A stretch of 24,000 bases of DNA, from assembly GCA_910586855.1 (NCBI GenBank), contig CAJUJH010000001.1, forward strand, positions 807,393-831,392, in the 5' to 3' direction. Under the pieces are notes generated by a model, which ran no database searches, had not been told where the DNA came from, and saw only the letters and a program-made list of their open reading frames with translations. Shown here piece after piece: positions 770 to 22,363 of the stretch (positions within the stretch are counted from its first letter, which is position 1; each line of letters begins with the position of its first letter). Source of the DNA: Candidatus Gastranaerophilales bacterium. GTDB taxonomy: Bacteria; Cyanobacteriota; Vampirovibrionia; Gastranaerophilales; Gastranaerophilaceae. The position numbers and the translations under genes were made by a program.

Positions 770-3283
770 CTATTTTTGGTCACCGTAGGTTTCGTATCCT
801 TTTTTCTTCATTTCATCAATTACGGTGTCGTTGATGGCTTCATCAAGACCTTCGCCTTTATCGTTGAACCATCCACTGTACTCGCCTTCGTTGTTATAGT
901 TATCTTCATCTGGCGTGTCTACACCTTCCAGTGAGCCTTCACCAAATGTTGCACCACCAACCGCTTTTGCTAAATCTGCAGCATCATTAAGTTCTTGTTT
1001 AATGCGGTCATTAAATGCTTTTTCTTCATCTTTGTCAATCAATATGTCACCATTTCCGCCGTTTTTCTCTTTGAGCTCGGTTGCTTGTGTGTGAATTTTT
1101 TCGGCTAAATCATATACTGATTGCATTTTGTCATTTAATGGGTCATTGTATGCTTTTTCAACATCGGCTTCAGATAATTGAGAGAACATATTTGTACCCA
1201 TAACCGCATCGTTTTCAAGAGTTGCTGCTATGTAATCATCATCTTCCATTGCTTGTTCTGCAGTGAAGTTATTGCCGTTCATTGTTACATTAAACGTTGT
1301 TTGAACCTGAGTATTATTAATGTTGTATGAATCTTCATTATTTGTTGGTGTCAGGTCAATCTTTGTAATTCCTGCATCCCAGGCACTTATGAAGCTTTGT
1401 TGAACACTTACGGTTCCATCGCCGTTATCAATTTCTTTAAGCTGCATCATCATAATTCCGCTTAAAGCTTCTTCGCCTTCGATAACGTTTTGACCTTCAG
1501 GAATGCCGTATTTTGTGCGGAATCCTGCCATACCTTCATCGTTATCTGAACCTAGAAGGTCTGTAATGCCGTCATATGTGCCATTACCATCATCTGCCAT
1601 AAAGTATAATCTGCTATCACCGTTTTTAATAGATATCGGGTCTGATCTGCCTGTGTCATTAACATCATTTTGAGTGGTTTTTGTTGATTGGATAACCTGA
1701 GAATCCTCCCATTGACCACCTTTTCCTGTGAAGCTCTTGATTTTTTCTGCAAGAGGAGTGTAGCTTGGGTCTGAATTAAATCTTACGCCGCCTTGACCTT
1801 GTTCAAAATCTTTTTGTTCACCCAATGAATAACCTATATCAAGACCGGGGAAGAATTGGTCGAGAGTATACATTGCTTCTTTGAATGAGAATCCGCCTGC
1901 TGCAAGTTCATCAACAAGTTTCATTGCATTTGCCATATCTTTTTCATTGGCAGGAGCAGTGCTTACCTCAGGCATTCCTGCTGTATTGTTTGCAATAGAC
2001 ATCACTGCTGTAAATATTTCCGGACCTCTGCCTGTAATTGTTCTGCCGGCAGCAGTTCGTTCATCCGGTGTACCATGACCGTATGGTACGGTATAGTTTC
2101 CGTTACCATTATCTTTAATGCCTATTCCGCCAAATGCATCAGCCAATATAGACATTATTTCACTGTTTGTTGCGCCGTTTTCCGCTAATTGCCATACAAG
2201 GCTGCCTTCCTGAATGGTTGTAGCATCTTTTTTGTCTCCAAATAATGCAGTTTCTAATGCCTGCATCATAGTATTATCTTTGCCGTAAGCATATTGGTCG
2301 CCTGAACCATGGGTTGTATTACCTGCTAAATCTTTGATTTGTTGTGTTATATTTCCTATGTTGCCGTCATTTCTTGTAGCGGCTTTGCCATCATTTGTAA
2401 CTTGGTTGTTATCGTTTCTGTCATTTAAATCAATACCATATTTATCAGCAAGCTCAGCAATTTTTGTTTCTTTTTCATATGTGAAAACAGGAACCTTTGA
2501 ATCATTATTTGCGTTAGAATAATAATTGTTATTTTGAGCAGTCATATTGCCCTTTTGCTGATTTAATACATTAATAATGGCTGAGGCATTCTTTAAGCCT
2601 TTCATTGCATTATCGCTATCTGAAATACATCTGTCGATATCTACCATATATTTATTCAAAGTACTGTTTTCGTTACCCATATCTTGATATAATTTTGCAA
2701 TATCAGCAAGACTTGAGTCTCCACTCATAAGACTGTCCAGGCTCGCATTAAATGTTTCTTTAAATGTTGTATTAACGCCAGCTTGTCTGTTTCTTTTTGT
2801 TTTATCGACAGCATCCGTAATGGCTTGACTGATTGCACTTTGTAATTGCTTTTCATATTTATTTTGTCTGCCGATGATATCCATACTGATATCACCAATC
2901 TTATCGCCGGTTTCACCAATTTCTTTATTTATTTTTGCAAGCTCTGTTTCATATTCTTTAAGCTTTGCTTCCCATTTTTCAATTTCATCATTAATATTTT
3001 TAATTTGTTTATCGATATCATCTATTGCTTTTTGACCGCCATTATTGTAGGTTTCTGTTCCCCAAAGAGTAAAATCGCCTTTGCTGATATCAGCTAAACC
3101 TGAAGCTAAACCATCTTTTTCTTTCATCCAATCTTGTACTTGTTTTAGCATGTCTGCTTGTACGTTTTGTGTTTTTGAAATGTCAGTTGCCATCTTCTTT
3201 AAATCCTTTCGCACTTTATTAAATACTTTATTGTCTTTAATTTTGCTGTATATATCAAATATATACATAGTGTTTTTCGGCAT
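770..3283 (-). CDS. Large orphan acidic, Asn/Asp-rich protein with an N-terminal coiled-coil region; no recognisable signal peptide
   Basis: 837-codon ORF. The N-terminal ~180 aa show heptad-like charge patterns (DKQIKNINDEIEKWEAKLKEYETELAKINKEIGETGDKIG). The centre and C-terminus are rich in D/N/G, with Ca-loop-like stretches (MADDGNGTYDGITDLLGSDNDEG). The start is uncertain. The ATG at 3283 lies 6 nt after a hairpin. M31 (ATG, rc of 3191-3193) has GAAAGGA upstream. Confidence 0.8.
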   Translation of the reverse strand: MPKNTMYIFDIYSKIKDNKVFNKVRKDLKKMATDISKTQNVQADMLKQVQDWMKEKDGLASGLADISKGDFTLWGTETYNNGGQKAIDDIDKQIKNINDEIEKWEAKLKEYETELAKINKEIGETGDKIGDISMDIIGRQNKYEKQLQSAISQAITDAVDKTKRNRQAGVNTTFKETFNASLDSLMSGDSSLADIAKLYQDMGNENSTLNKYMVDIDRCISDSDNAMKGLKNASAIINVLNQQKGNMTAQNNNYYSNANNDSKVPVFTYEKETKIAELADKYGIDLNDRNDNNQVTNDGKAATRNDGNIGNITQQIKDLAGNTTHGSGDQYAYGKDNTMMQALETALFGDKKDATTIQEGSLVWQLAENGATNSEIMSILADAFGGIGIKDNGNGNYTVPYGHGTPDERTAAGRTITGRGPEIFTAVMSIANNTAGMPEVSTAPANEKDMANAMKLVDELAAGGFSFKEAMYTLDQFFPGLDIGYSLGEQKDFEQGQGGVRFNSDPSYTPLAEKIKSFTGKGGQWEDSQVIQSTKTTQNDVNDTGRSDPISIKNGDSRLYFMADDGNGTYDGITDLLGSDNDEGMAGFRTKYGIPEGQNVIEGEEALSGIMMMQLKEIDNGDGTVSVQQSFISAWDAGITKIDLTPTNNEDSYNINNTQVQTTFNVTMNGNNFTAEQAMEDDDYIAATLENDAVMGTNMFSQLSEADVEKAYNDPLNDKMQSVYDLAEKIHTQATELKEKNGGNGDILIDKDEEKAFNDRIKQELNDAADLAKAVGGATFGEGSLEGVDTPDEDNYNNEGEYSGWFNDKGEGLDEAINDTVIDEMKKKGYETYGDQK

Positions 3284-3336: not shown

Positions 3337-5469
3337 CTATTTTTCTTTAGTTGAAAATGAAAGATTGGCGGTGTTTTTCCAGATTATATATTGTAAATAT
3401 TGGGTTTTATTATCAATATCTTTGTAGCTTGTTCTTATATTATACACAGGGGTAAAGCTTGCATTTTCAAGCTTTTTATAAGGAATCCCGCACTGAATTA
3501 ATACAACTTTATTGTTTTGTTCACTCTTTTCAAAGTAGCAGTTTTTCGGGTATTTTTTTTCTAAAAGCGCCTGTTTATCCTTGTTGTTAAATGCATTTAT
3601 ATCTTGATTAGGATATGGGGTGATTATATAATCATATTTTTTAACAATATCTGCATTAAATCTGGAAAGTATTAATTCATCAGCTTTTATATGTTTTTTG
3701 GCAGCAATAAATATTGCAAGCTGTGTTAGGGCATAATTGTTGTGAAATATTCCAACAGTTTTATATTCTTCAATATATGAAAACAATGTTCCATATATTT
3801 TGCAATCAGGTTTGTATCTTTTAAAAAAATCATAATTAAGACATCTAACATTATATGTAAATGTGTTAAAATTTCTTTCTTTTTTATACATATCTAAAAG
3901 GCTGTAAAATGGTCTGGCAGCCAAGTGCCCAGATGCAACAAGGAAATAAAACATTGCAAATATTATAACCAAAGTTTTATAGAAATTGTTCTTTTTGAAA
4001 TAGGTAAATATTAATACCGGTGTGCTTATTACTACAAAAGTTGTAATAAATCTTATGCTATAAACCATATATCCTATTGCAAAACTTAATACAACAATGT
4101 TTATATAAAATAAAAGCCCTAATACAGGTATTATAATCTTATTTTCTTGTATATTTTTTCTGTATATTAATTTTGTGATTAATAATGCAATAGATAATAA
4201 AATTGCTGGTATGAGTGCTAAAATACCAGTTATCCCAAAGCCTATAAATTGTTCCGAGAGAGATGAGTTTAAAGATTCCATTCTCATAAGAACCCCTGTC
4301 TCCTGTGGTATATGCAAAATAGCAAATAGGGCACTTTGAACTTTATACATTAAAGGGGTTAAATATATTCCCCAAGTAAAACCTGAGAAATCTATAAGCT
4401 GGATATTATATGTTACAAAATTTGCTAAAAAACCTTTAAAACCGCCAAAAAATCCATGTCCGTTGATTGATATTTCAGAACCCAGCGGGTTTGAATAATC
4501 TATAAGGTTTAAAATATAGTTGTAGCTTGAAAATATTATAAAATTAATTATTAAAAAGCAAATAAATTTTATAAACTTTTTTATTCCCGCTGTTTTCTTC
4601 TTGAATATCAGGTAAATAAAATATGCTGCTAAAAGCGGCAATCCTGCCATAAATGCCGTACTTTTTACGCCAAGCGCTATTGCAAAAGAAAGGCTTGAAA
4701 AATATCCTTTTATTATATTGTCTTGTTTTACATAATCAATAAAAAATAGTACCGAATAAAAAAGTAAAACACCTGTCAATAAATCAGTCTGAGTGCTTGA
4801 AATTTGAGCAATTATACCGGCAAACGATGAAAATATGAAAATTGCCCATAATCGTTTTCTGTATGATATCTTAAATTTTTCTAAAAAGGTCCAAATGCCT
4901 GCTATTCCAAAAAAGTAACTTGAAAATTGTAAAAATCCAAAACCAAAATCTTTATTTGTAAGTGAAAAAATCCAAGTATAAATAAGTTCTGAATTAATCG
5001 GCATAACATGGTTTCTGATGTCTGCAGTATCAAAATGATGTATAAAACCTTTTTGTGCCCAAATAAGAGCTCTGTATGTGTGATAACTTAAAGCATCCGG
5101 TTCATTTACAGGTAAAAAAGCACATAAAATAAAACTTATTACTATTAAAAAAATAAATCCGGCACCTAAAATTGCAAGCCCCTTATCAAGTTTGAAGCAA
5201 TTTAAAATCCTCTCTGCTCTGTTTTTCAGTTCTGTTACATCCGGCTTTAATACGGGTTTTTTATTTTTTAACCACAATATTAATGAAATTATAAAAAATA
5301 TTAAATTTAATAAAATAATTCCAATCGGGCTTATTGCTTTAAAAAGAGACAACAACTCAATATTTAAAATAATGAGTCCTAAAAATATTATAAAAAAATA
5401 CAAAAAGCACCCGGCAAATGCCGACAAAAAATATGAAGTTAAAATAGTTAGCAGCAAGGATAATATCAT
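3337..5469 (-). CDS. Polytopic membrane protein, probably a GT-C fold (ArnT/PMT-like) glycosyltransferase
   Basis: 710 aa with more than 12 predicted hydrophobic helices. An acidic motif (PVNEPDALSYHTYRALIW) follows the early helices, as in the GT-C first loop. There is a soluble C-terminal domain of about 170 aa. The family assignment is inferred from architecture only. Confidence 0.5.
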   Translation of the reverse strand: MILSLLLTILTSYFLSAFAGCFLYFFIIFLGLIILNIELLSLFKAISPIGIILLNLIFFIISLILWLKNKKPVLKPDVTELKNRAERILNCFKLDKGLAILGAGFIFLIVISFILCAFLPVNEPDALSYHTYRALIWAQKGFIHHFDTADIRNHVMPINSELIYTWIFSLTNKDFGFGFLQFSSYFFGIAGIWTFLEKFKISYRKRLWAIFIFSSFAGIIAQISSTQTDLLTGVLLFYSVLFFIDYVKQDNIIKGYFSSLSFAIALGVKSTAFMAGLPLLAAYFIYLIFKKKTAGIKKFIKFICFLIINFIIFSSYNYILNLIDYSNPLGSEISINGHGFFGGFKGFLANFVTYNIQLIDFSGFTWGIYLTPLMYKVQSALFAILHIPQETGVLMRMESLNSSLSEQFIGFGITGILALIPAILLSIALLITKLIYRKNIQENKIIIPVLGLLFYINIVVLSFAIGYMVYSIRFITTFVVISTPVLIFTYFKKNNFYKTLVIIFAMFYFLVASGHLAARPFYSLLDMYKKERNFNTFTYNVRCLNYDFFKRYKPDCKIYGTLFSYIEEYKTVGIFHNNYALTQLAIFIAAKKHIKADELILSRFNADIVKKYDYIITPYPNQDINAFNNKDKQALLEKKYPKNCYFEKSEQNNKVVLIQCGIPYKKLENASFTPVYNIRTSYKDIDNKTQYLQYIIWKNTANLSFSTKEK

Positions 5470-5523
5470 AAGGCAATTATAAGATTAAATATTAAGGTAA
5501 TCAAGAACTATGCTATCGGGTAG

Positions 5524-5552
5524 TTTACATTTGTCCTTAAGATTTTTATTAT
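5524..5552 (+). promoter_or_regulatory. Sigma70-like promoter candidate (TTTACA-N17-TATTAT)
   Basis: TTTACA at 5524-5529, a 17-nt spacer, and TATTAT at 5547-5552. It would drive a transcript of about 65 nt ending at the 5592-5624 terminator. Confidence 0.3.
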
Positions 5553-5591
5553 AACTATTGTGCATATTCCACTCTCACTCGTAAACTGTTT

Positions 5592-5624
5592 AACCGATTT
5601 CCTTTCTGGAGGTCGGTTTTTTTT
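5592..5624 (+). terminator. Intrinsic terminator with no annotated gene upstream on this strand
   Basis: 11-bp stem, aaccgatttcc (5592-5602) / ggaggtcggtt (5608-5618), including 2 G-U pairs. The loop is tttct. A T8 run (5617-5624) follows, with its first two Ts closing the stem. Confidence 0.7.
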
Positions 5625-5632
5625 GTTATAAT
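5624..5632 (+). promoter_or_regulatory. Extended -10 box TGTTATAAT
   Basis: TGnTATAAT consensus, directly downstream of the terminator T-run. It would start a transcript near 5640. Confidence 0.35.
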
Positions 5633-5657
5633 TTCATTAAGGGTAAACTTCTGCTTG

Positions 5658-5702
5658 CCTCCTCCGACACATGCTGGTTAAGAGATAAAATCGGAAAGGA
5701 GG
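5658..5702 (+). promoter_or_regulatory. 5'-UTR hairpin that sequesters the Shine-Dalgarno site of the small ORF
   Basis: CCTCCTCCGA (5658-5667) pairs with TCGGAAAGGAGG (5691-5702), giving 10 bp with a 2-nt bulge. The 3' arm is the only SD for the ATG at 5709. Confidence 0.4.
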
Positions 5703-5708
5703 TAATGA

Positions 5709-5786
5709 ATGATTTTCAGTATTTCTGAAAAAGCGCTATTGCTTATCTTGTTGATAATCATAGCGCTTACAAAAATCATTAAATAG
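5709..5786 (+). CDS. Unannotated 25-aa hydrophobic peptide (MIFSISEKALLLILLIIIALTKIIK), a type I toxin-like small membrane peptide candidate
   Basis: GGAGG lies 6 nt upstream of the ATG at 5709. The ORF is 26 codons ending in TAG (5784-5786). The peptide has a single predicted TM helix with a Lys-rich C-terminus, and a terminator lies 10 nt downstream. It is too short for the ORF track. Confidence 0.4.
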   Translation: MIFSISEKALLLILLIIIALTKIIK

Positions 5787-5794
5787 GGAGTTAA

Positions 5795-5830
5795 GAAAGG
5801 CTTGAAGAGATGCTGCTCTTTGAGCCTTTT
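5795..5830. terminator. Bidirectional terminator hairpin shared by recR (minus) and the small ORF (plus)
   Basis: 13-bp stem, aaggcttgaagag (5797-5809) / ctctttgagcctt (5816-5828), with 2 G-U pairs. It has T-rich flanks on both strands. Confidence 0.65.
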
Positions 5831-5878
5831 CCCTATATCTATATTATAAACCTCATTAATGCTTTGTCAATCATATCA

Positions 5879-6490
5879 TTACATCTCGCATCTTGCTTCT
5901 AATGCTTTTATGAGTGTTAATTCATCCGCATATTCTAATTCAGAGCCTAAAGGAATACCGAATGCTATTCTTGAAATCTTTATTCCAAAAGGTTTTAAAA
6001 GTTTATTAAGATACATGCTTGTAGCTTCCCCCTCAACAGAAGGGTTTAGAGCCAATATGACTTCTTTAATGTCATCTTTATGTACTCTTGTTAATAATTC
6101 TTTAATCCTGATATCATCAGGGCCGATGCCGTCAATTGGGGAGATTAACCCTTGCAGGACATGATAAAGCCCGTTGTATTCATTTGTTTTTTCTATAGCG
6201 ATTAAATCTTTAGTCTCTCCGACTACACAAATAATTTCCCTGTTTCTTGCAGAATTTTGGCAAATTTCACAAGGATTTGAAGATGACATATTAAAACAAA
6301 CATCACAATAATTTATAGTGGTTTTGGCTTCAATCATTGATTCTGCAAATTTTTCCACCTCATTTAACGGCATCTTTAAAAGATGCAGTGCAAGTCTTTG
6401 TGCTGTCTTTGGACCAATTGAAGGCAGTTTTTGAAAATATTCAATTAATTTTGCAAGCGGTTTTGTATATTCCAAACTTTTAAACTCCAT
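5879..6490 (-). CDS. recR: Recombination protein RecR
   Basis: 203 aa. It has an N-terminal HhH (LPSIGPKTAQRLALHLL), a Cys4 zinc finger (CDVCFNMSSSNPCEIC) and a Toprim segment (ICVVGETKDLIAIEKT). Confidence 0.95.
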   Translation of the reverse strand: MEFKSLEYTKPLAKLIEYFQKLPSIGPKTAQRLALHLLKMPLNEVEKFAESMIEAKTTINYCDVCFNMSSSNPCEICQNSARNREIICVVGETKDLIAIEKTNEYNGLYHVLQGLISPIDGIGPDDIRIKELLTRVHKDDIKEVILALNPSVEGEATSMYLNKLLKPFGIKISRIAFGIPLGSELEYADELTLIKALEARCEM

Positions 6491-6538
6491 TCAAAAATAT
6501 GCCCAAGAAAAATTTTCCCGGGCATAAAATTTTATTTC

Positions 6539-6871: not shown

Positions 6872-6924
6872 TATAATTTTCTCCCCATTGTCATTCTAAA
6901 AGTCATGTTATAATTACTTATTAT

Positions 6925-7704
6925 ATGCAAAGAAAAACTTATCTTCAATATTGTTTAAATAATAAAGGTAAAATTTCAAGGTGGATGTCAAATATGATGC
7001 CGCTTTCTTTTCATATTGCACCTTTTAGATGGTATAAATCCACCTCCCAATCTGATGCATATAAATATACGGGTCTTGTAATAGATGCACTTAATGCCTG
7101 GCAGAATGCTGCCGGTGGATGCATAGGTTTTAATGTAGTAAATGCTTTGATTGATTCCCACGTTAACCTTGAGTGGAAGCGTGTAGATAGAAAGTCATTA
7201 GGGCATTGTCAATTTCATTATGACCCAAACGGCAGATATTATTCAGCAGAAGTTAAAATAGGGCTGTCTGACGGTATTATTTGTAAAAAATATATGGATG
7301 AAGCTGAGGTTTATCATACTATCCTCCATGAAATCGGGCATGCCTTGGGTCTTGGGCACTCGCCTTATAAAGAAGATATTATGTACACTCCGCACCAATA
7401 TGGTATTGTAAAACTTTCTCAAAGAGATGTTCAAACTCTTCGCTGGCTTTATAAATTTGATATAGGAAAATCTCCTTCTGAAATTCTTGCTCAGTATCCA
7501 AATTCAGGAGCTAAGGATTTAGATGAACTTATTATGATATTATCCGGCGAGAAATCGGAATTTCAAAAAGTAAAAGACGGGCTTTCGTCTCGCCCGGGTA
7601 AAGATTTAATTCAAGAAAGCCAAAATATAGGCGACTTAAAAATGTATTTATTACAGGTTCATAATAATTTTGTTATACGAAAACCCGCTCCGCCAAAGGA
7701 ATAG
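6925..7704 (+). CDS. Matrixin-like metzincin zinc metalloprotease (peptidase M10-like); no signal peptide
   Basis: HEIGHALGLGHS (HExxHxxGxxH), then the Met-turn IMY, then LSQRDVQTLRWLY. The last matches the MMP-type L..DD..GIQ.LY motif. The start is uncertain. The ATG at 6925 has TGTTATAAT (6906-6914) 10 nt upstream and no SD. An internal ATG-ATG near 6993 follows AAGGTGG. Confidence 0.8.
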   Translation: MQRKTYLQYCLNNKGKISRWMSNMMPLSFHIAPFRWYKSTSQSDAYKYTGLVIDALNAWQNAAGGCIGFNVVNALIDSHVNLEWKRVDRKSLGHCQFHYDPNGRYYSAEVKIGLSDGIICKKYMDEAEVYHTILHEIGHALGLGHSPYKEDIMYTPHQYGIVKLSQRDVQTLRWLYKFDIGKSPSEILAQYPNSGAKDLDELIMILSGEKSEFQKVKDGLSSRPGKDLIQESQNIGDLKMYLLQVHNNFVIRKPAPPKE

Positions 7705-8113: not shown

Positions 8114-11100
8114 ATGAAAATTGTTTATCTAAAGCCTTTTAAAAGGTTACGTTCTTTTGCTGTACAAAAATTACAGTTTATATCTAAGGTGAAAAATCAA
8201 GGTCGCAGAGTGCAATTTATTGTATCGACATTGAAATTAGGATTAAGAAAATCCTTTGCCTTCTCCCTTGTTGAAATGCTTATGGCATTATTGGTAGCAT
8301 CGCTGCTTTTAGCAGCGCTTGCCCCTGTAATGACAAAGAGGATGACAGATAATGAAGTAAAAATAATATCAGAAGCAGCTAATTATGATAAAGATAGCGT
8401 AATAACTATTTTTACAGATGCATCTGAACAAAAAGAATTTAATATACCAACAGATGCAAGCAGAATAACATTAACAGCAGTAGGTGCAGGCGGTGCAGGC
8501 GGTAATGCATTATACGGTAATAAAGAATTTACAACAAGCGGAACATTTACCATACCAAACGATGTTAACAAGATAAGAGTATTTATGGTAGGTGCGGGAG
8601 GAGGCGGAGCTTCCGGAGGTATGGGAAATGGTATGGCATACGCTAATGTCCCTGCAATAGGAGCTGTTGAAACAACACTTACAAATGCCGGTACATATAC
8701 ACTTTCAGATGTTGTTACCATTCCAAATACATATACAGCACCTGTTCTAAATTCTTATTGTGATAAATTCAGTGCATTAAAAAAATGGGTAATGAAATCA
8801 AATACCTCAACACAAATAAATCCTGGAGCCAAAATTTCAAAAATTGATGGCAGTGCAATTGTCACATTTAATAAATTTACTGCATGCGGCGGAGGCGGAG
8901 GCGGGGGATATACTTCAGGCGGTATTGGTGCAAGCGGAGGAGGTTCTGGCGGATATGTAACAAATCAAACATTAGCCGCATCTGCTGCTGCCTCTGGTAT
9001 TAAATTTATAGTAGGTGCTGGTGGTAGTGGTGCGTTGCAAGCAAGCTATGGTCAGGGAGGTCCCGGCGGTGGCACGGGAGGTGCAGAAGGCGGAGGCAGG
9101 GGTGTACCTCAAGGTGGTCAGAATGGGACTAACGGTTCTGGCGGTCGCGGAGGTTATAGAACATACTCTGATATGTCAGGGGCACATGGGTTTTCGGGTT
9201 TTGGCGGCGGAGGTGGTGGCGGAACTGCAATATTATCTGACACAAGTGCAATTGCAGAAATTGGCGGCGGAGGTGGCGGTGCTGGTGGAACATGGGGTAG
9301 AAGTGATGGAACCATTTCTTCCAGCTTTATTTCTGGTGCTGGCGGCGGAGGCGGTGGACGTGGTGCTGGCGGCGGAGGCGGTTCATTAAGACTGCAAATG
9401 GTGAACGTTGGGTGTCAGGGACGTTCCGGTACAACAGGCGGTAATAATGGTAGTAGGGGTCTATGTGGTTTTGCACCCGATGATGGTGGTAGATATCCTG
9501 AACAGCAAGGCGGTGCAGGGTATGATGGTGGTGGCGGAGGCGGTGGAGGGGCATATTTAGATACCCCCTCTACAGAAGGGAGAACATGTACTGTGGCTAA
9601 TGGGTCTACGACATCAAGCGGTGCTGGTGGAGGTGGCGGTGGATTTACCTCACGAACCTATCCTGATGTTAGCCACGCATTTGGCGGTGGAGGGGGCGGG
9701 GGAAAAGGCGGACGCGGGGGAACCGGCGGTCCAGGCGGAGGTATTGGTGGCTCAATATCTACCATCTTTGGAAGCAGTAACTGCAATGGAGGCGATTCTG
9801 GAGTTGACGGTAAACCCGGTGCTATGCGTGTATGGTATTCTATTGCAGGTGTTACCAACGGTCTTCAGTGTGCATATTCTACCCAATCAAATGGCGGAGG
9901 CGGAGGTGGTGCAGGTCAAGTATGGATGGGTGAAATTAATGTAACGCCGGGGCAGACTATTACATTAAACATAGGACAAGGCGGTGCTGCTCAAAATATC
10001 GGCGGAGAAAACGGAAACGACGGTACACCAACAAGTATTGTTGTTAATGGTAATACATATTCTGTATCAGGCGGAAAAGGCGGAAAGTTTGAAAACGATA
10101 ATACATATATAGCTAATTCAGGAGGTCTTGGCGGCGGAATAAAAACCACTAATTATAGTTCTTCTGCTATATATAAAGATTGGCTTAAATTAAATGAAAA
10201 AGGAATAACTCTAACAGGAGGAAATAACGGCGGACAAGGATATCTAAAAACAGACAGTGAAAGCAGTGCAGGCGGAAATGGCGGAAGTGCATTAAAAATG
10301 GATGGTACTTATGCTGCAGGCGGTGTTGGCGGAGCTGCAGTTACCGGTGGTGCTAATTCAACAAATTATGGTACAGGCGGAGGCGGAGGAGGAGCAGGTA
10401 CTGATGGAACATTTGGAAACGGAGGCAGAGGTGCTAACGGATATATATACATTGAATGGGGTGGAACAAACGGAGGCGGAGGAACAAATGGTGAAATTGT
10501 TCAAAGAATACTTACCAACTTTGATATGAATGATAGAAAGATGTTAATAAATATTGGAAAAGGCGGAAGTAATTCATCAGGTGATGGTAATGGAGGCAAT
10601 ACAACAATTTCTGTTAAATCCGGAGGAAAAAACGTTGTTGTTACAGCAAGAGGAGGTATTAAAGGAAACATTGGCACATCTGACGCCAATACCCATGGAG
10701 CAGAAATGATATTTCCATCTGACTACAATAACCTATACAAGGACTTTGTTCAAAACAATCTGAATATTATTAACGGACAAAAAGGAATAAATGATTATGG
10801 CGGTATGGGCGGATATCTGGCTTGTATATATTATTCAAAGGACAAAGACGGTAACAGAGTATGCAATACATCTGTTGATTCCAATGATGGAGTTGAAGAA
10901 ACAGCAGGACCAACAAGACCCGGATGCGGAGGAAGCGCTATACCATCTCCGCTATATGAAGCCATCTGTAATGCTAAATCAACATCGGTATCTGCTGATG
11001 GAGGTAATGGAACCTTTGGCGGCGGAGGCGGCGGCGGAGCAGTATTAAACAGAATGGGAGGCAAAGGAGGCAATGGCGGCAATGGCTTTGTAATTCTTGA

Positions 11101-11119
11101 ATACAAGAGTGTACAATAG
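8114..11119 (+). CDS. Giant glycine-rich protein with a prepilin-type (class III) N-terminal signal and multiple glycine-rich, tail-fibre-like modules
   Basis: 1001 aa, with GGAG 9 nt upstream. The motif RKSFA|FSLVEMLMALLVASLLLAALAPV (8258-8329) fits [GAS]|[FM]xxxE with Glu at +5, followed by a hydrophobic helix. The rest repeats a beta-strand followed by a Gly run (ITLTAVGAGGAGG, IRVFMVGAGGGGASGG, KFTACGGGGGGG, IKFIVGAGGSGA, VTPGQTITLNIGQGGAA, GYIYIEWGG, GFVILEYK). Gly runs reach 7-8 residues. The leader is long (49 aa). Alternative starts at GTG (V33) or TTG (L40) are possible. Confidence 0.85.
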   Translation: MKIVYLKPFKRLRSFAVQKLQFISKVKNQGRRVQFIVSTLKLGLRKSFAFSLVEMLMALLVASLLLAALAPVMTKRMTDNEVKIISEAANYDKDSVITIFTDASEQKEFNIPTDASRITLTAVGAGGAGGNALYGNKEFTTSGTFTIPNDVNKIRVFMVGAGGGGASGGMGNGMAYANVPAIGAVETTLTNAGTYTLSDVVTIPNTYTAPVLNSYCDKFSALKKWVMKSNTSTQINPGAKISKIDGSAIVTFNKFTACGGGGGGGYTSGGIGASGGGSGGYVTNQTLAASAAASGIKFIVGAGGSGALQASYGQGGPGGGTGGAEGGGRGVPQGGQNGTNGSGGRGGYRTYSDMSGAHGFSGFGGGGGGGTAILSDTSAIAEIGGGGGGAGGTWGRSDGTISSSFISGAGGGGGGRGAGGGGGSLRLQMVNVGCQGRSGTTGGNNGSRGLCGFAPDDGGRYPEQQGGAGYDGGGGGGGGAYLDTPSTEGRTCTVANGSTTSSGAGGGGGGFTSRTYPDVSHAFGGGGGGGKGGRGGTGGPGGGIGGSISTIFGSSNCNGGDSGVDGKPGAMRVWYSIAGVTNGLQCAYSTQSNGGGGGGAGQVWMGEINVTPGQTITLNIGQGGAAQNIGGENGNDGTPTSIVVNGNTYSVSGGKGGKFENDNTYIANSGGLGGGIKTTNYSSSAIYKDWLKLNEKGITLTGGNNGGQGYLKTDSESSAGGNGGSALKMDGTYAAGGVGGAAVTGGANSTNYGTGGGGGGAGTDGTFGNGGRGANGYIYIEWGGTNGGGGTNGEIVQRILTNFDMNDRKMLINIGKGGSNSSGDGNGGNTTISVKSGGKNVVVTARGGIKGNIGTSDANTHGAEMIFPSDYNNLYKDFVQNNLNIINGQKGINDYGGMGGYLACIYYSKDKDGNRVCNTSVDSNDGVEETAGPTRPGCGGSAIPSPLYEAICNAKSTSVSADGGNGTFGGGGGGGAVLNRMGGKGGNGGNGFVILEYKSVQ

Positions 11120-11487: not shown

Positions 11488-13290
11488 TTATTCTTCATTC
11501 AGGCTCAAAACTGCCATAAATGCTTCCTGCGGAATATCTACCCTTCCAACAGATTTCATGCGCTTTTTACCTTTTTTCTGTTTTTCCAAAAGCTTGCGTT
11601 TGCGGGAAATATCGCCGCCATAGCATTTATCAAGTACATTTTTCCTTAATGCTTTAATGGTTGTTCTTGCTATAACGCGTCCGCCGACCGCTGCTTGAAT
11701 TGCAACTTCAAACATCTGTCTTGGAATAATATCTTTCAATTTGGCTGTGAGGTTTTGCCCGATTCTATATGCTGAATCCTTGTGGCATATAACAGAAAGG
11801 GCATCCACAACTTCTCCTGAGAGTAGAATATCCATTTTAACAAGGCTTGAACGTTTATAGCTGTGAAAATCATAGTCCATGCTGGCATAACCCTTAGAGC
11901 GGGATTTTAATTGGTCATAAAAATCCGTGATAACTTCGCTTAAAGGTATGTGATATTCAAGATTTACACGCGTTTTATCCAGATATTGCATATTTATAAA
12001 ATCACCGCGTTTACTTTGGCATAATTCCATAAGGGAACCCACGAAGTCTTTAGGGGTAAAAATATTTACACGAACATAAGGTTCTTCAATATAATCGCGA
12101 TATTGCGGGTCCGGCAGGTTGGCAGGGTTATCAATCTCAACCACTTCGCCATCTGTTTTATAAACTTTGTATATAACGGAAGGTGCTGTCGTAATTAGGG
12201 AAAGGTCATACTCGCGTTCCAGCCGCTCTTGTGCAATTTCCATATGAAGCATCCCAAGGAAACCGCACCTGAAACCAAAACCAAGAGCCGATGATGTTTC
12301 AGGCTCAAATGTTATGGAACTATCATTTAATTTTAATTTTTCCAATGCCTCTTTTAAGTCATGGTACTGGTCATTATCAACGGGATAAAGTCCTGAAAAT
12401 ACCATTGGTTTGGCTTCTTTATATCCTTCTAATGGTTTTGATGCCGGAAGTTCAGCGTTTGTAATGGTATCGCCTACAAATCTTGTTATTTCTTTAATAG
12501 AACCTGCAAAGTAGCCCACTTCCCCGGTTTTTAACTCATTTACCTGTACTCTGTTTGGGTTTAAATATCCAAGCTCAACAACTTCAAACTTTTTGCCCGT
12601 TGCCATAAACTGAACCGTATCGCCCATTTTAATTGAGCCGTCCATAACTTTAAAAAAGCATAGAGTGCCAAGATATTGGTCATAGGCGCTGTCAAAAACA
12701 AGTGCTCTTAATGGCTTGTCGGATGTATCATCCGGTGCAGGGATATATTCTACAACGGCCTCAAGCACTTCTTCAATACCAATTCCCTCTTTTGCACTTA
12801 CAGGAATTGCCATAGAGGCATCAATTCCAAGCACCTCTTCGATTTCATTTTTAACGCGTTCAACATCAGCAGACGGCAGGTCGATTTTATTAATGACGGG
12901 AATAATTTCAAGGTTTTGTTCAATCGCAAGATAAACATTTGCAAGGGTTTGCGCTTCAACCCCCTGTGTTGCATCTACTATTAAAAGTGCCCCTTCACAG
13001 GCTGCAAGCGACCTTGAAACCTCGTAAGAAAAATCTACATGCCCAGGGGTGTCAATCAAGTTTAAAATATATTCTTTACCATCTTTTGCTTTGTACTGCA
13101 TTTTCGCAGCGTTTAGTTTAATTGTAATTCCGCGCTCGCGCTCAATATCCATAGTATCTAAAAGCTGGTCTTGCATTTCTCTTTGAGAGATTGTTCCTGT
13201 TTTTTCAAGAAGCCTGTCTGCAAGCGTCGATTTACCATGGTCAATATGTGCAATTATGCTGAAATTTCTTATGTTTTCTATTTTTTTCAT
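11488..13290 (-). CDS. lepA: Translation elongation factor 4 (LepA)
   Basis: 600 aa. It has the GTPase motifs [25 protein letters not shown] and NKID, plus the LepA-specific C-terminal domain (..[22 protein letters not shown]..). Confidence 0.97.
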
Positions 13291-13397
13291 AGGAAAATTA
13301 TATTATAAAAAAATAAAATTTAAAAAATGAAAAACGAACGGTTTTTCTATTTTTCTCATAAGAAGATTATATTATAAAAAAATATAAAAATAAAATT
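13273..13397. repeat. Imperfect tandem duplication (~48 and ~57 nt, period ~68 nt) of the lepA promoter plus its first 6 codons
   Basis: Copy A is 13273-13320 and copy B is 13341-13397. On the minus strand the copies read ..TTTTTTTATAATATAATTTTCCTATGAAAAAAATAGAAAAC and ..TTTTTTTATAATATAATCTTCTTATGAGAAAAATAGAAAAAC. Copy B opens an 18-codon mini-ORF (13303-13359, minus). Confidence 0.8.
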
Positions 13398-21027: not shown

Positions 21028-22179
21028 TTAAGAAAATCTACTTAAAATAATATCGGCAATTCTTTTTGAAGCAAGCCCGTCTCCATATGGGTTTACAGCC
21101 ATTTTCATTGAATTATAAAAATTATCATCATCCAAAAGCTGTCCCACGGTGGATGTAATTTTTTCCCTATTTGTACCAACGAGTTTAACGCAGCCGCTAT
21201 GAACCGCTTCCGGTCTTTCAGTTTCATCTCTTAAGACAAGTACCGGAACACCAAGAGATGGCGCTTCTTCTTGCACGCCGCCTGAATCAGTTAAAATGAT
21301 ATGCGCTTTTTTCATCAAGGCGCAAAACGGAGCATAATCCAGCGGCTCAATAAGTTTTACCCTCTCAACACCGTCAAGCTTTTTAAACACTATATCTCTA
21401 ACATTTGGATTCAAGTGAACAGGATATACAATTTCTATATCTTTATGTGCTTTAATGATATCTAAAACTGCATCACAAATGTTTTCTAACGGTTTGCCAA
21501 AATTCTCTCTTCTATGGGAGGTTAAAAGTATAGTTTTTAAATCTTCTCTAAGCCCTAAATATGAAAGGTCAAAATCTTTTTTCACCGTATACAAAAGGGC
21601 ATCAATTACGGTATTTCCTGTTTTGTATATTCTTCTGCCATCTTGGTATGAATTGTCCATACCTGCATTTAAAATACCTTCTTTGATTCCTGAATTTAAA
21701 AGATTTTCAATAGAACCCTCTGTTGGTGCAAAATGCAAATCAGAAACTGCATCCGCTAAAACCCTGTTAATTTCCTCAGGAAATGGGTAACCCTTATTAA
21801 ATGTGCGAAGCCCCGCCTCAACATGTCCTATCGGCACCCTTGCATAAAATGCACTTAAGGCGCTTGCAAAAGCAGTTGTCGTATCACCATGCACAAGCAC
21901 TATGTCAGGCTTTACTTCTTCAAATATATTTTTTGTTTCCATTAAGATTTCAGAAGTTAAACTCCACAGATTTTGATTTGGCTTCATTAAATTTAAATCA
22001 TAATCAGGGATGATTTCAAATAAATCCAAAACCTGGTCAAGCATTTGCCTGTGCTGCGCTGTTACAATTACAACAGGCTCAAATTCTGCCCTTTTCTTAA
22101 GTTCCAAGACAAGGGGTGCCATTTTAATGGCTTCAGGTCTGGTACCAAATATAACGGCAGTTCTAATTTTCTTATCCAT
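21028..22179 (-). CDS. wecB: UDP-N-acetylglucosamine 2-epimerase (non-hydrolysing)
   Basis: IFGTRPEAIKMAPL, HGDTTTAFASALSAFY, GHVEAGLRT, TDSGGVQEEAPSLGVPVLVLR. I place the start at the ATG (MDKKIRTAV..). The track ORF extends to a TTG at 22215. Confidence 0.93.
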   Translation of the reverse strand: MDKKIRTAVIFGTRPEAIKMAPLVLELKKRAEFEPVVIVTAQHRQMLDQVLDLFEIIPDYDLNLMKPNQNLWSLTSEILMETKNIFEEVKPDIVLVHGDTTTAFASALSAFYARVPIGHVEAGLRTFNKGYPFPEEINRVLADAVSDLHFAPTEGSIENLLNSGIKEGILNAGMDNSYQDGRRIYKTGNTVIDALLYTVKKDFDLSYLGLREDLKTILLTSHRRENFGKPLENICDAVLDIIKAHKDIEIVYPVHLNPNVRDIVFKKLDGVERVKLIEPLDYAPFCALMKKAHIILTDSGGVQEEAPSLGVPVLVLRDETERPEAVHSGCVKLVGTNREKITSTVGQLLDDDNFYNSMKMAVNPYGDGLASKRIADIILSRFS

Positions 22180-22363
22180 AAAAAGGATTGTATACAAATA
22201 ATTGGAAAAATACAAGGCTGATTTTCAAAATTTCTAATAATGGTACAAATTCCACTATTTTAAATTATTAATTTATGTAAAATTTTTTTCCAAACGTGCA
22301 TATCTCCAATTTATATATACTTTTTATATATAAAAGATAGCAATAAATATTCGGAGTTTAGAT

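Follow-up and report, generated by a model that had tools for sequence, protein, structure and literature searches.

A predicted, deeply conserved small RNA gene and a neighboring candidate type I toxin–antitoxin cassette downstream of recR in a gut Gastranaerophilales bacterium

In type I toxin–antitoxin systems the toxin is a short (<60 amino acids, aa) hydrophobic peptide with a predicted transmembrane helix (PMC12390103), and a locked Shine–Dalgarno sequence (SD) combined with an antisense promoter of consensus strength is a described pattern of such toxins (PMC12390103, PMC3834814). In the bsrG/SR4 system, an antisense RNA overlapping at the 3′ end acts both by driving RNase III-dependent decay and by tightening the structure at the ribosome binding site (PMC3834814). 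Reports of type I systems come only from Proteobacteria, Firmicutes and Tenericutes; the one addition is a 2025 candidate from Microcystis aeruginosa, MsoT1/MsoA1, which was described as the first in the phylum Cyanobacteria (PMC12390103). Yfr1 is a small RNA of 54–69 nucleotides (nt) that is conserved in cyanobacteria and carries an ultraconserved, unpaired undecanucleotide, ACUCCUCACAC (PMC2190773). Here, a 409-nt intergenic spacer (5470–5878) that holds elements comparable to both kinds of system was analyzed in a 24,000-nt stretch of DNA (hereafter the window) from a gut Gastranaerophilales bacterium (Melainabacteria/Vampirovibrionia). The spacer separates recR (minus strand, 5879–6490) from a gene for a 710-aa polytopic membrane protein (minus strand, 5469 down to 3337), and the closest RecR loci in the genome collection were mouse-gut assemblies labeled as Gastranaerophilales. 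Because recR lies on the minus strand, the plus-strand elements of the spacer are convergent with it.

A previous, sequence-only reading had treated this spacer as one organized locus. All the elements it listed were confirmed, and its interpretation was supported in part. Folding of a 278-nt stretch of the spacer was far more stable than that of shuffled sequence on both strands (z = −5.5 on the plus strand and z = −4.6 on the minus strand). The comparison with related genomes indicates that the spacer is two separate units, a small RNA gene (5524–5624, plus strand) and a species-specific insert (5625–5878). As an account of the whole spacer, a free-standing, conserved small RNA gene next to an independent insert laid out like a type I toxin–antitoxin pair is given slightly better than an even chance. 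The small RNA gene comprises the following features.

5524–5552, plus strand: small RNA promoter, TTTACA (5524–5529), a 17-nt spacer and TATTAT (5547–5552)
5560–5624, plus strand: predicted small RNA of about 62–66 nt with an unpaired 5′ part and a 3′ terminator, both ends predicted
5563–5587, plus strand: invariant block CATATTCCACTCTCACTCGTAAACT, 25 nt, containing CACUC-U-CACUC and predicted to be unpaired
5592–5624, plus strand: intrinsic terminator of the small RNA, stem 5592–5602 with 5608–5618 (11 pairs), then a T-run (T8) to 5624

The promoter hexamers, which had been noticed in the sequence-only reading, matched the consensus at 10 of 12 positions in a promoter scan. The terminator has a free energy of about −16 kcal/mol and reads as a plus-strand element, because its two U-G pairs would become A-C mismatches on the other strand. 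At the 5′ end of the RNA only a 3-bp GUG/CAC pairing is possible, and this is lost in the versions that start with AUACAUA. The same reading had taken the orphan terminator as the mark of a short RNA of about 65 nt, and the comparative data bear this out by showing a conserved gene.

The DNA that follows recR in 80 related loci was compared with the spacer. The conserved part was found to be 5470–5624 only, which was present in eight other species with RecR 90–98% identical (L001–L004 and L006–L009). In these species the promoter hexamers are kept, with a variable spacer in between. From the predicted start site onward, 32 nt (GTGCATATTCCACTCTCACTCGTAAACTGTTT) are the same throughout except for one substitution in one of the eight, and the terminator stems differ by paired changes. 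A metagenome collection was also scanned with 20 nt of the small RNA core. The scan returned 23 loci, 22 of which were built alike, with a −10 box ahead of the core and behind it a GC-rich hairpin, unrelated in sequence, that leads into a T-run; the other (L104) was set aside as a chance match. With a further copy in L116, 28 distinct versions (27 + L116) were collected from Gastranaerophilales genomes and low-GC metagenome contigs, the sources being mouse-gut genome assemblies and human-gut metagenome contigs. The block CATATTCCACTCTCACTCGTAAACT was identical in 25 of 25 distinct sequences whose upstream flanks were complete, and on either side of it the sequence diverges freely. Conservation begins at the predicted start site and ends at the hairpin, for which about 12 unrelated stems were seen, and the predicted length across versions is about 52–76 nt, calculated between predicted ends.

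The covariation of the terminator was measured in a covariance-model alignment of 26 distinct sequences. Compensatory changes were found at all 11 of the 11 stem pairs. The proportion of paired alignment cells was 94.9%, compared with 60.9% in shuffles, and none of 500 shuffles reached as high a value; slid-register controls reached at most 55.5%. The alignment was fitted to the covariance model, which favors the structure, and the margin was large nonetheless. The gene has a promoter of its own and a Rho-independent terminator, both outside coding genes, as in the general class of trans-acting small RNAs. Taken with the distribution of the gene, these results make it very probable that the RNA of 5560–5624 is the product of a real RNA gene, deeply conserved in gut Melainabacteria.

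This small RNA is previously undescribed, which is the firmest result of the analysis. In Rfam release 15, searched at gathering thresholds for the window and 14 related loci and at permissive E-values for 5400–5950 and 5550–5632, only terminator look-alikes were found. The literature search found no paper containing the sequence and no paper on regulatory or small RNAs in Melainabacteria. Several other identities were also considered and rejected. A coding gene was rejected since the 23-aa GTG frame is not preserved across versions, the hairpin lengths vary and some versions lack the start codon. A dif site was dropped by eye for want of dyad symmetry; a CRISPR anti-repeat was likewise dropped by eye, with cas genes and repeats not nearby and a single hairpin in the RNA. 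The one match of the core among viral contigs, in a high-GC phage, was judged to be chance.

In the proposed course of events, a sigma-70-type promoter would start transcription near 5560, and the intrinsic terminator would stop it near 5620–5625. The first ~30 nt of the resulting ~65-nt RNA would stay unpaired, including the 25-nt block that is invariant across gut Melainabacteria. The C/U-rich 5′ region (CACUC-U-CACUC) may be the working part, which would act in trans through RNA base pairing or through the binding of a conserved partner. No target above chance was found in the 24-kb window or across related loci totaling 0.5 Mb. For the Escherichia coli rrnB operon, the best duplex was no better than shuffled controls, and the start region of the divergent 710-aa gene gave no match except in one lineage. 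The 25-nt invariant block exceeds the usual seed length, so a conserved protein or RNA partner is possible and simple mRNA pairing may not suffice. We know of no RNA chaperone in this lineage. The one lineage with a match is that of L091, L099 and L102, where the start-codon region of the 710-aa homolog (GGAGCAGUGGAAUAUG), about 100 nt upstream of the small RNA on the opposite strand, is complementary over 11 nt to the small RNA 5′ end (CAUAUUCCACU); this is probably chance, other lineages having no such match. A second stretch of complementarity was noticed in the insert of L006 (~3640–3700; AACCCTGCCTCCTTTAGCTTAAGGCAGGGTTGAGTTTACGAGC in the plus orientation of the window), where a terminator-like hairpin is followed by GAGUUUACGAG. 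This sequence complements 10 nt of the invariant block, perhaps by coincidence or perhaps as a local pairing partner.

The small RNA gene is not tied to recR, and elsewhere its neighbors differ. In five metagenome loci and in L116 it stands divergently upstream of homologs of the 710-aa protein (31–44% and 38% identity, respectively). PF13231 (PMT_2), which we take to be a GT-C glycosyltransferase family, was found in some of the homologs; the 710-aa protein of the window itself gave no Pfam or NCBIfam match. A link with the cell envelope is hinted at by how often the gene and a PMT_2-like membrane glycosyltransferase homolog share a divergent promoter region. Paralogs of the 710-aa membrane protein were also seen to form tandem arrays in other Gastranaerophilales. 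Between the two divergent promoters of the window, an inverted repeat (5506–5527, AACTAYCC-N4-GGGTAGTT) overlaps the −35 box of the small RNA. It is kept in the eight related species, where T/C changes retain pairing as G-U on the plus strand, and could be an operator or an RNA hairpin. Distant lineages retain only a GGGnAnTT-type motif at the −35 region of the small RNA.

The second unit of the spacer starts where the conserved element ends, and its features are as follows.

5625–5878: species-specific insert, 254 bp, candidate toxin/antisense cassette
5624–5632, plus strand: extended −10 box TGTTATAAT, putative promoter of the open reading frame (ORF) transcript, with a predicted start near 5639
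5655–5705, plus strand: SD hairpin, 5655–5667 with 5691–5705, in which AAGGAGG (5696–5702) is buried against CCTCCTCCGA
5709–5786, plus strand: 25-aa ORF MIFSISEKALLLILLIIIALTKIIK, with its ATG 6 nt after the SD
5796–5833, plus strand: terminator hairpin of the ORF transcript, 5796–5809 with 5816–5829, 14 bp; on the minus strand it would follow recR
5843–5870, minus strand: perfect consensus promoter TTGACA-N16-TATAAT directed into the ORF, which would start the antisense RNA near 5836
5727–5836, minus strand: predicted antisense RNA (~110 nt, both ends predicted) with full complementarity to the final 20 codons of the ORF and to the 3′ untranslated region
5728–5768, minus strand: antisense terminator, AAGCGCUAU with AUAGCGCUU (5768–5760 with 5739–5731), then U5, inside the ORF

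On the plus strand, the extended −10 box, the SD hairpin, the 25-aa ORF and the last hairpin had all been described in the sequence-only reading, and all are present. The SD hairpin has a free energy of −18 kcal/mol (z = −2.5), buries AAGGAGG against CCTCCTCC in the RNA, and its helix is also found in the full-length fold. The predicted mRNA (5639–5835, ~198 nt) folds with −68.2 kcal/mol (z = −5.3). Both the SD and the AUG lie in helices in the minimum-energy and the centroid folds, so that a poorly accessible ribosome binding site, as known from type I toxins, is predicted here too, and inverted repeat I4 pairs the regions of the start and stop codons with each other. The last hairpin folds on both strands, more strongly on the plus strand (−19.9 kcal/mol, z = −4.7) than on the minus strand (−15.1 kcal/mol). 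It is better as a plus-strand RNA because its G-U pairs would be A-C mismatches on the other strand.

The ORF itself is unusual in the window. AAGGAGG followed by ATG occurs once, with 0.28 expected, and most of the 13 long genes have no SD. Since most genes lack one, a perfect SD is a useful flag for acquired or unusual genes in this window. The encoded peptide has a basic tail and a grand average of hydropathicity (GRAVY) of 1.98, which makes it the most hydrophobic of the 168 ATG-initiated ORFs of 20–40 aa in the window. No other hydrophobic small ORF with an SD ahead of it was seen in ~60 kb of intergenic DNA of related genomes. The peptide, at 25 aa, is thus of the short hydrophobic kind expected of a type I toxin, with a hydrophobic run of 12 residues that is short for a full membrane span.

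Two features that strengthen a type I reading had been missed in the sequence-only reading, namely the consensus promoter on the opposite strand and the antisense terminator inside the ORF. TTGACA-N16-TATAAT at 5870–5843 is the only perfect match in the 24 kb, and 0.02 would be expected by chance. The terminator lies ~70 nt past the predicted antisense start and has a free energy of −16.4 kcal/mol (z = −4.3). Its palindrome would stop minus-strand transcripts only, because the plus-strand side continues as ACAAAAA. Given the perfect minus-strand promoter and the hairpin with U5, an antisense RNA of ~110 nt is predicted; it folds with −40.1 kcal/mol (z = −6.5) into two hairpins. An antisense RNA with its own opposite-strand promoter and complementarity to the toxin mRNA, as in type I antitoxins, is thus predicted in silico, with an overlap of ~110 nt. 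The stem of the antisense terminator is built from the two GCG alanine codons of the ORF, GCG making up 7% of the alanine codons in the genes of the window. This fits a sequence with a dual purpose, and fits foreign or non-coding DNA equally well.

If the insert works as a type I pair, a plus-strand mRNA of ~200 nt, with its SD and AUG held in helices, would encode the 25-aa hydrophobic, basic-tailed peptide. The consensus promoter on the minus strand would make the ~110-nt antisense RNA, which would end inside the ORF and match the 3′ half of the mRNA. The duplex of the two RNAs would then lead to mRNA decay or to locked translation, as in bsrG/SR4 and txpA/RatA.

The distribution of the insert differs from that of the small RNA. 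Everything from 5625 to the recR stop, including the SD hairpin, the ORF and the last terminator, is missing from the eight other species that have the small RNA, which speaks against the view of the spacer as a single locus. Since only 5470–5624 is conserved among relatives, the SD hairpin, the ORF and the last terminator form a lineage-specific insert beside an older element. In L001 (RecR 98%), the T-run of the small RNA ends 4 nt from the recR stop; L002–L004 have short, unrelated spacers between the small RNA and recR; and L006–L009 have other, unrelated inserts of ~200–470 nt at this position, in which no comparable SD-preceded hydrophobic small ORF was found. Species appear to differ in the short inserts that they have accumulated at the position just after the small RNA terminator. 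The inserts of L008 (2658–3124) and L009 (3607–3942), ~340–470 nt long, were seen by eye to be G+C-richer than their surroundings and partly conserved between the two; neither an Rfam match nor a convincing ORF was found in them, and they may be another non-coding RNA. Two contigs of the same species as the window (L081 and L082) have an identical 409-nt spacer, and look-ups with RecR and YbaB gave identical spacers only. The RecR of this species is listed in 411 blocks of the assembly collection, and contigs of the species include ERZ27241791 k141_311287 and ERZ13657766 NODE_14. A third locus, L110, which was reached through the 710-aa homolog (89% identity), is also of the same species, with recombination patches and one single-nucleotide polymorphism in the cassette. 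No convincing direct or inverted repeats were found around the cassette as marks of a transposable element.

The type I toxin–antitoxin reading is the best single explanation for the insert, and from the sequence we would give it somewhat less than an even chance. The sequence-only reading had already proposed a type I module; this is plausible for the ORF part, and the upstream RNA lies outside the cassette. Several points weigh against it. The three RNAs, like all their ends, are predictions from the sequence. The extended −10 pattern TGTTATAAT was found 3 times in the window with 2.5 expected, no rarer than chance and not significant on its own; an identical 9-mer stands 10 nt ahead of the ATG of an apparently leaderless peptidase gene at 6925. 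The U-tract of the ORF terminator on the plus strand is short (4 U), and the hydrophobic stretch runs uninterrupted for 12 residues, few for a membrane span. The ORF has atypical codon usage (GCG twice, CTA, and TTG three times), which also fits non-coding or foreign DNA. No DNA similar to the cassette was found in the 80 recR loci or the 23 metagenome loci, and plasmids and phages gave chance-level matches or none. The 25-aa peptide had no Pfam or NCBIfam match at E ≤ 10 and matched no type I toxin family, and a degenerate back-translation scan of viral contigs returned nothing. The exact peptide was likewise absent from a collection of 15 billion proteins. The searches thus gave no homology to the described toxin families (among them Fst, TxpA/BsrG, Hok, Ldr, Ibs and TisB), which does not exclude a type I mechanism because the known families are often lineage-restricted.

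Many bacterial single-helix proteins of 20–40 aa are harmless, and the cassette might encode a non-toxic small membrane protein, a regulator or a subunit of a membrane complex, whose expression is tuned by the cis-antisense RNA. The same sequence evidence would serve this explanation as serves a toxin, and a 12-residue hydrophobic run is short for a pore-former. However, a single species gained the cassette, in self-contained form and without a partner gene, and a locked SD together with an antisense promoter of consensus strength is the type I pattern (PMC12390103, PMC3834814). We consider a harmless product unlikely.

It is also unlikely that the insert is non-coding, consisting of convergent small RNAs and/or a recR terminator with a fortuitous ORF in AT-rich DNA. 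The atypical codons fit this, as do the rare GCG codons at both alanines, which form the palindrome, and the failure to find a homologous peptide in Pfam, NCBIfam or the protein collection. Moreover, a 25-codon ORF would stay open with an estimated chance of ~13% at this composition, and the hairpins are strong whether the region codes or not. On the other hand, a perfect SD 6 nt before an ATG is unique here, where genes mostly have none, and the SD is specifically what the hairpin buries. A fortuitous ORF would also have to rank first of 168 in hydrophobicity and be the only one of its kind in the ~60 kb of related intergenic DNA.

The integrated model of the sequence-only reading, in which the upstream short RNA is a trans-acting antitoxin or regulator of the ORF whose hairpin sequence UUUCCUUUCU pairs with the SD, is very improbable: inspection by eye allows a pairing of 10 bp, three of them G-U, and the 5-nt terminator loop is specific to this species, but the small RNA is conserved in at least 22 loci and eight other species without the ORF, the UUUCC belongs to an ancestral stem common to L001 and L003, and the cassette contains no complement to the conserved 5′ region. 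Co-folding of the two RNAs gained −5.5 kcal/mol with the SD not involved and both hairpins intact. This gain was unchanged with the RNAs of three relatives that have different hairpins, and the best duplex between the upstream RNA and the leader was within one standard deviation of shuffled controls. Because it is found in eight species and in other contexts without the ORF, the upstream RNA exists independently of it, and the small RNA and the cassette appear, from their sequences, to be independent neighbors.

The surroundings of the spacer were also inspected. The promoter of the 710-aa gene lies within the conserved part of the spacer.

5476–5504, minus strand: 710-aa gene promoter, TTGATT-N17-TATAAT, divergent from the small RNA promoter

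The ATG of this gene (5469) stands 6 nt downstream of the −10 box, and the arrangement TTGATTA-N16/17-TATAAT-N6-ATG is kept in L003, L004, L006, L007 and L008. Its mRNA looks leaderless because the ATG is only 6 nt past the −10 box. TATAAT-like boxes were found 6–10 nt ahead of the ATG in several long genes (5469–5481, 6906–6927, 13290–13312 and 22179–22201), which suggests that leaderless mRNAs may be widespread in this organism. A terminator-like hairpin of 13 pairs followed by TTTTT was noticed on the minus strand (6498–6526), in the gap from the ybaB stop (6539) to the recR start (6490); ybaB and recR may be parted by a terminator or an attenuator rather than simply co-transcribed. No tRNA or tmRNA was found in the 24-kb window. 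Further away, 8114–11119 (plus strand) encodes a 1001-aa glycine-rich protein (Pfam Gly_rich_2 by precomputed annotation), the N-terminus of which resembles a prepilin signal (FSLVEMLMALLVASLLLAALAP), and whose GGA/GGT codons supply most of the GGAGG strings in the window. The same-species locus L110 is ~100% identical to the window except for two patches of ~80% (~1600–2200 and ~3500–4400). These fall inside the 837-aa gene (770–3283, minus strand) and the 710-aa gene (3337–5469, minus strand), and point to recombination in surface-related genes.

To our knowledge, gut Melainabacteria are almost entirely uncultured. The small RNA offers a concrete entry point into post-transcriptional control in these bacteria, and a means of asking if regulators of the Yfr1 type are older than the split from photosynthetic cyanobacteria. 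If the type I reading of the insert is true, the pair would widen the known range of type I systems, and would be an example of such a cassette that landed at a variable position next to a small RNA gene. Going further, the small RNA might be a core regulator of gut Melainabacteria and perhaps a diverged Yfr1 relative, its invariance coming from a conserved partner linked to the envelope glycosyltransferase rather than from seed pairing, and the non-photosynthetic branch of the cyanobacterial phylum might have in the insert its first type I pair. We regard this combination as a long shot.

Enterobacterial trans-acting small RNAs, such as RybB and OmrA/B, have a conserved 5′-terminal seed. Like them, the Gastranaerophilales small RNA is a free-standing gene with a conserved, unpaired 5′ end and a variable terminator hairpin; unlike them, its conserved stretch is much longer than a typical seed. 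With Yfr1 it shares its size, the predicted ~52–76 nt across versions covering the 54–69 nt of Yfr1, as well as a Rho-independent terminator and an unpaired, C/U-rich invariant motif (ACUC-UCACUC versus ACUCCUCACAC), and the hosts are sister lineages. However, the undecanucleotide is absent; in its place all versions have CCACUCUCACUCG, which differs by one deletion and one substitution. A 5′ stem-loop of 6–10 bp is also lacking, and the invariant block is 25 nt long compared with 11. The small RNA is not filed as Yfr1 because both the exact motif and the 5′ stem-loop are lacking; the two may share ancestry.

The insert finds its nearest counterparts in bsrG/SR4 and txpA/RatA of Bacillus subtilis. 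Both, like the cassette as predicted, have a gene for a small hydrophobic peptide, a structured mRNA with a poorly accessible ribosome binding site, and a convergent antisense RNA that has a strong promoter of its own and is complementary to the toxin mRNA in its 3′ part (PMC3834814, PMC12390103). The RNAs also fall into similar size classes, with ~294 nt for bsrG mRNA and ~180 nt for SR4 compared with the ~200 and ~110 nt predicted here. The cassette differs from bsrG/SR4 in that its peptide has 25 aa instead of the 38 of BsrG, its antisense terminator would lie inside the ORF, it has no sequence similarity to known toxin families and its host is a Melainabacterium. It is, moreover, a prediction from sequence likened to these systems by architecture, unlike bsrG/SR4 and unlike MsoT1, the toxicity and partial rescue of which were tested in E. 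coli. By analogy of layout, the cassette would stand closest to the 3′-overlapping bsrG/SR4 class, as a member of no described toxin family. Like MsoT1/MsoA1, it is a candidate type I pair in the cyanobacterial phylum that was found by architecture rather than by homology (PMC12390103), the host of MsoT1 belonging to Cyanobacteria and that of the cassette to their non-photosynthetic sister class.

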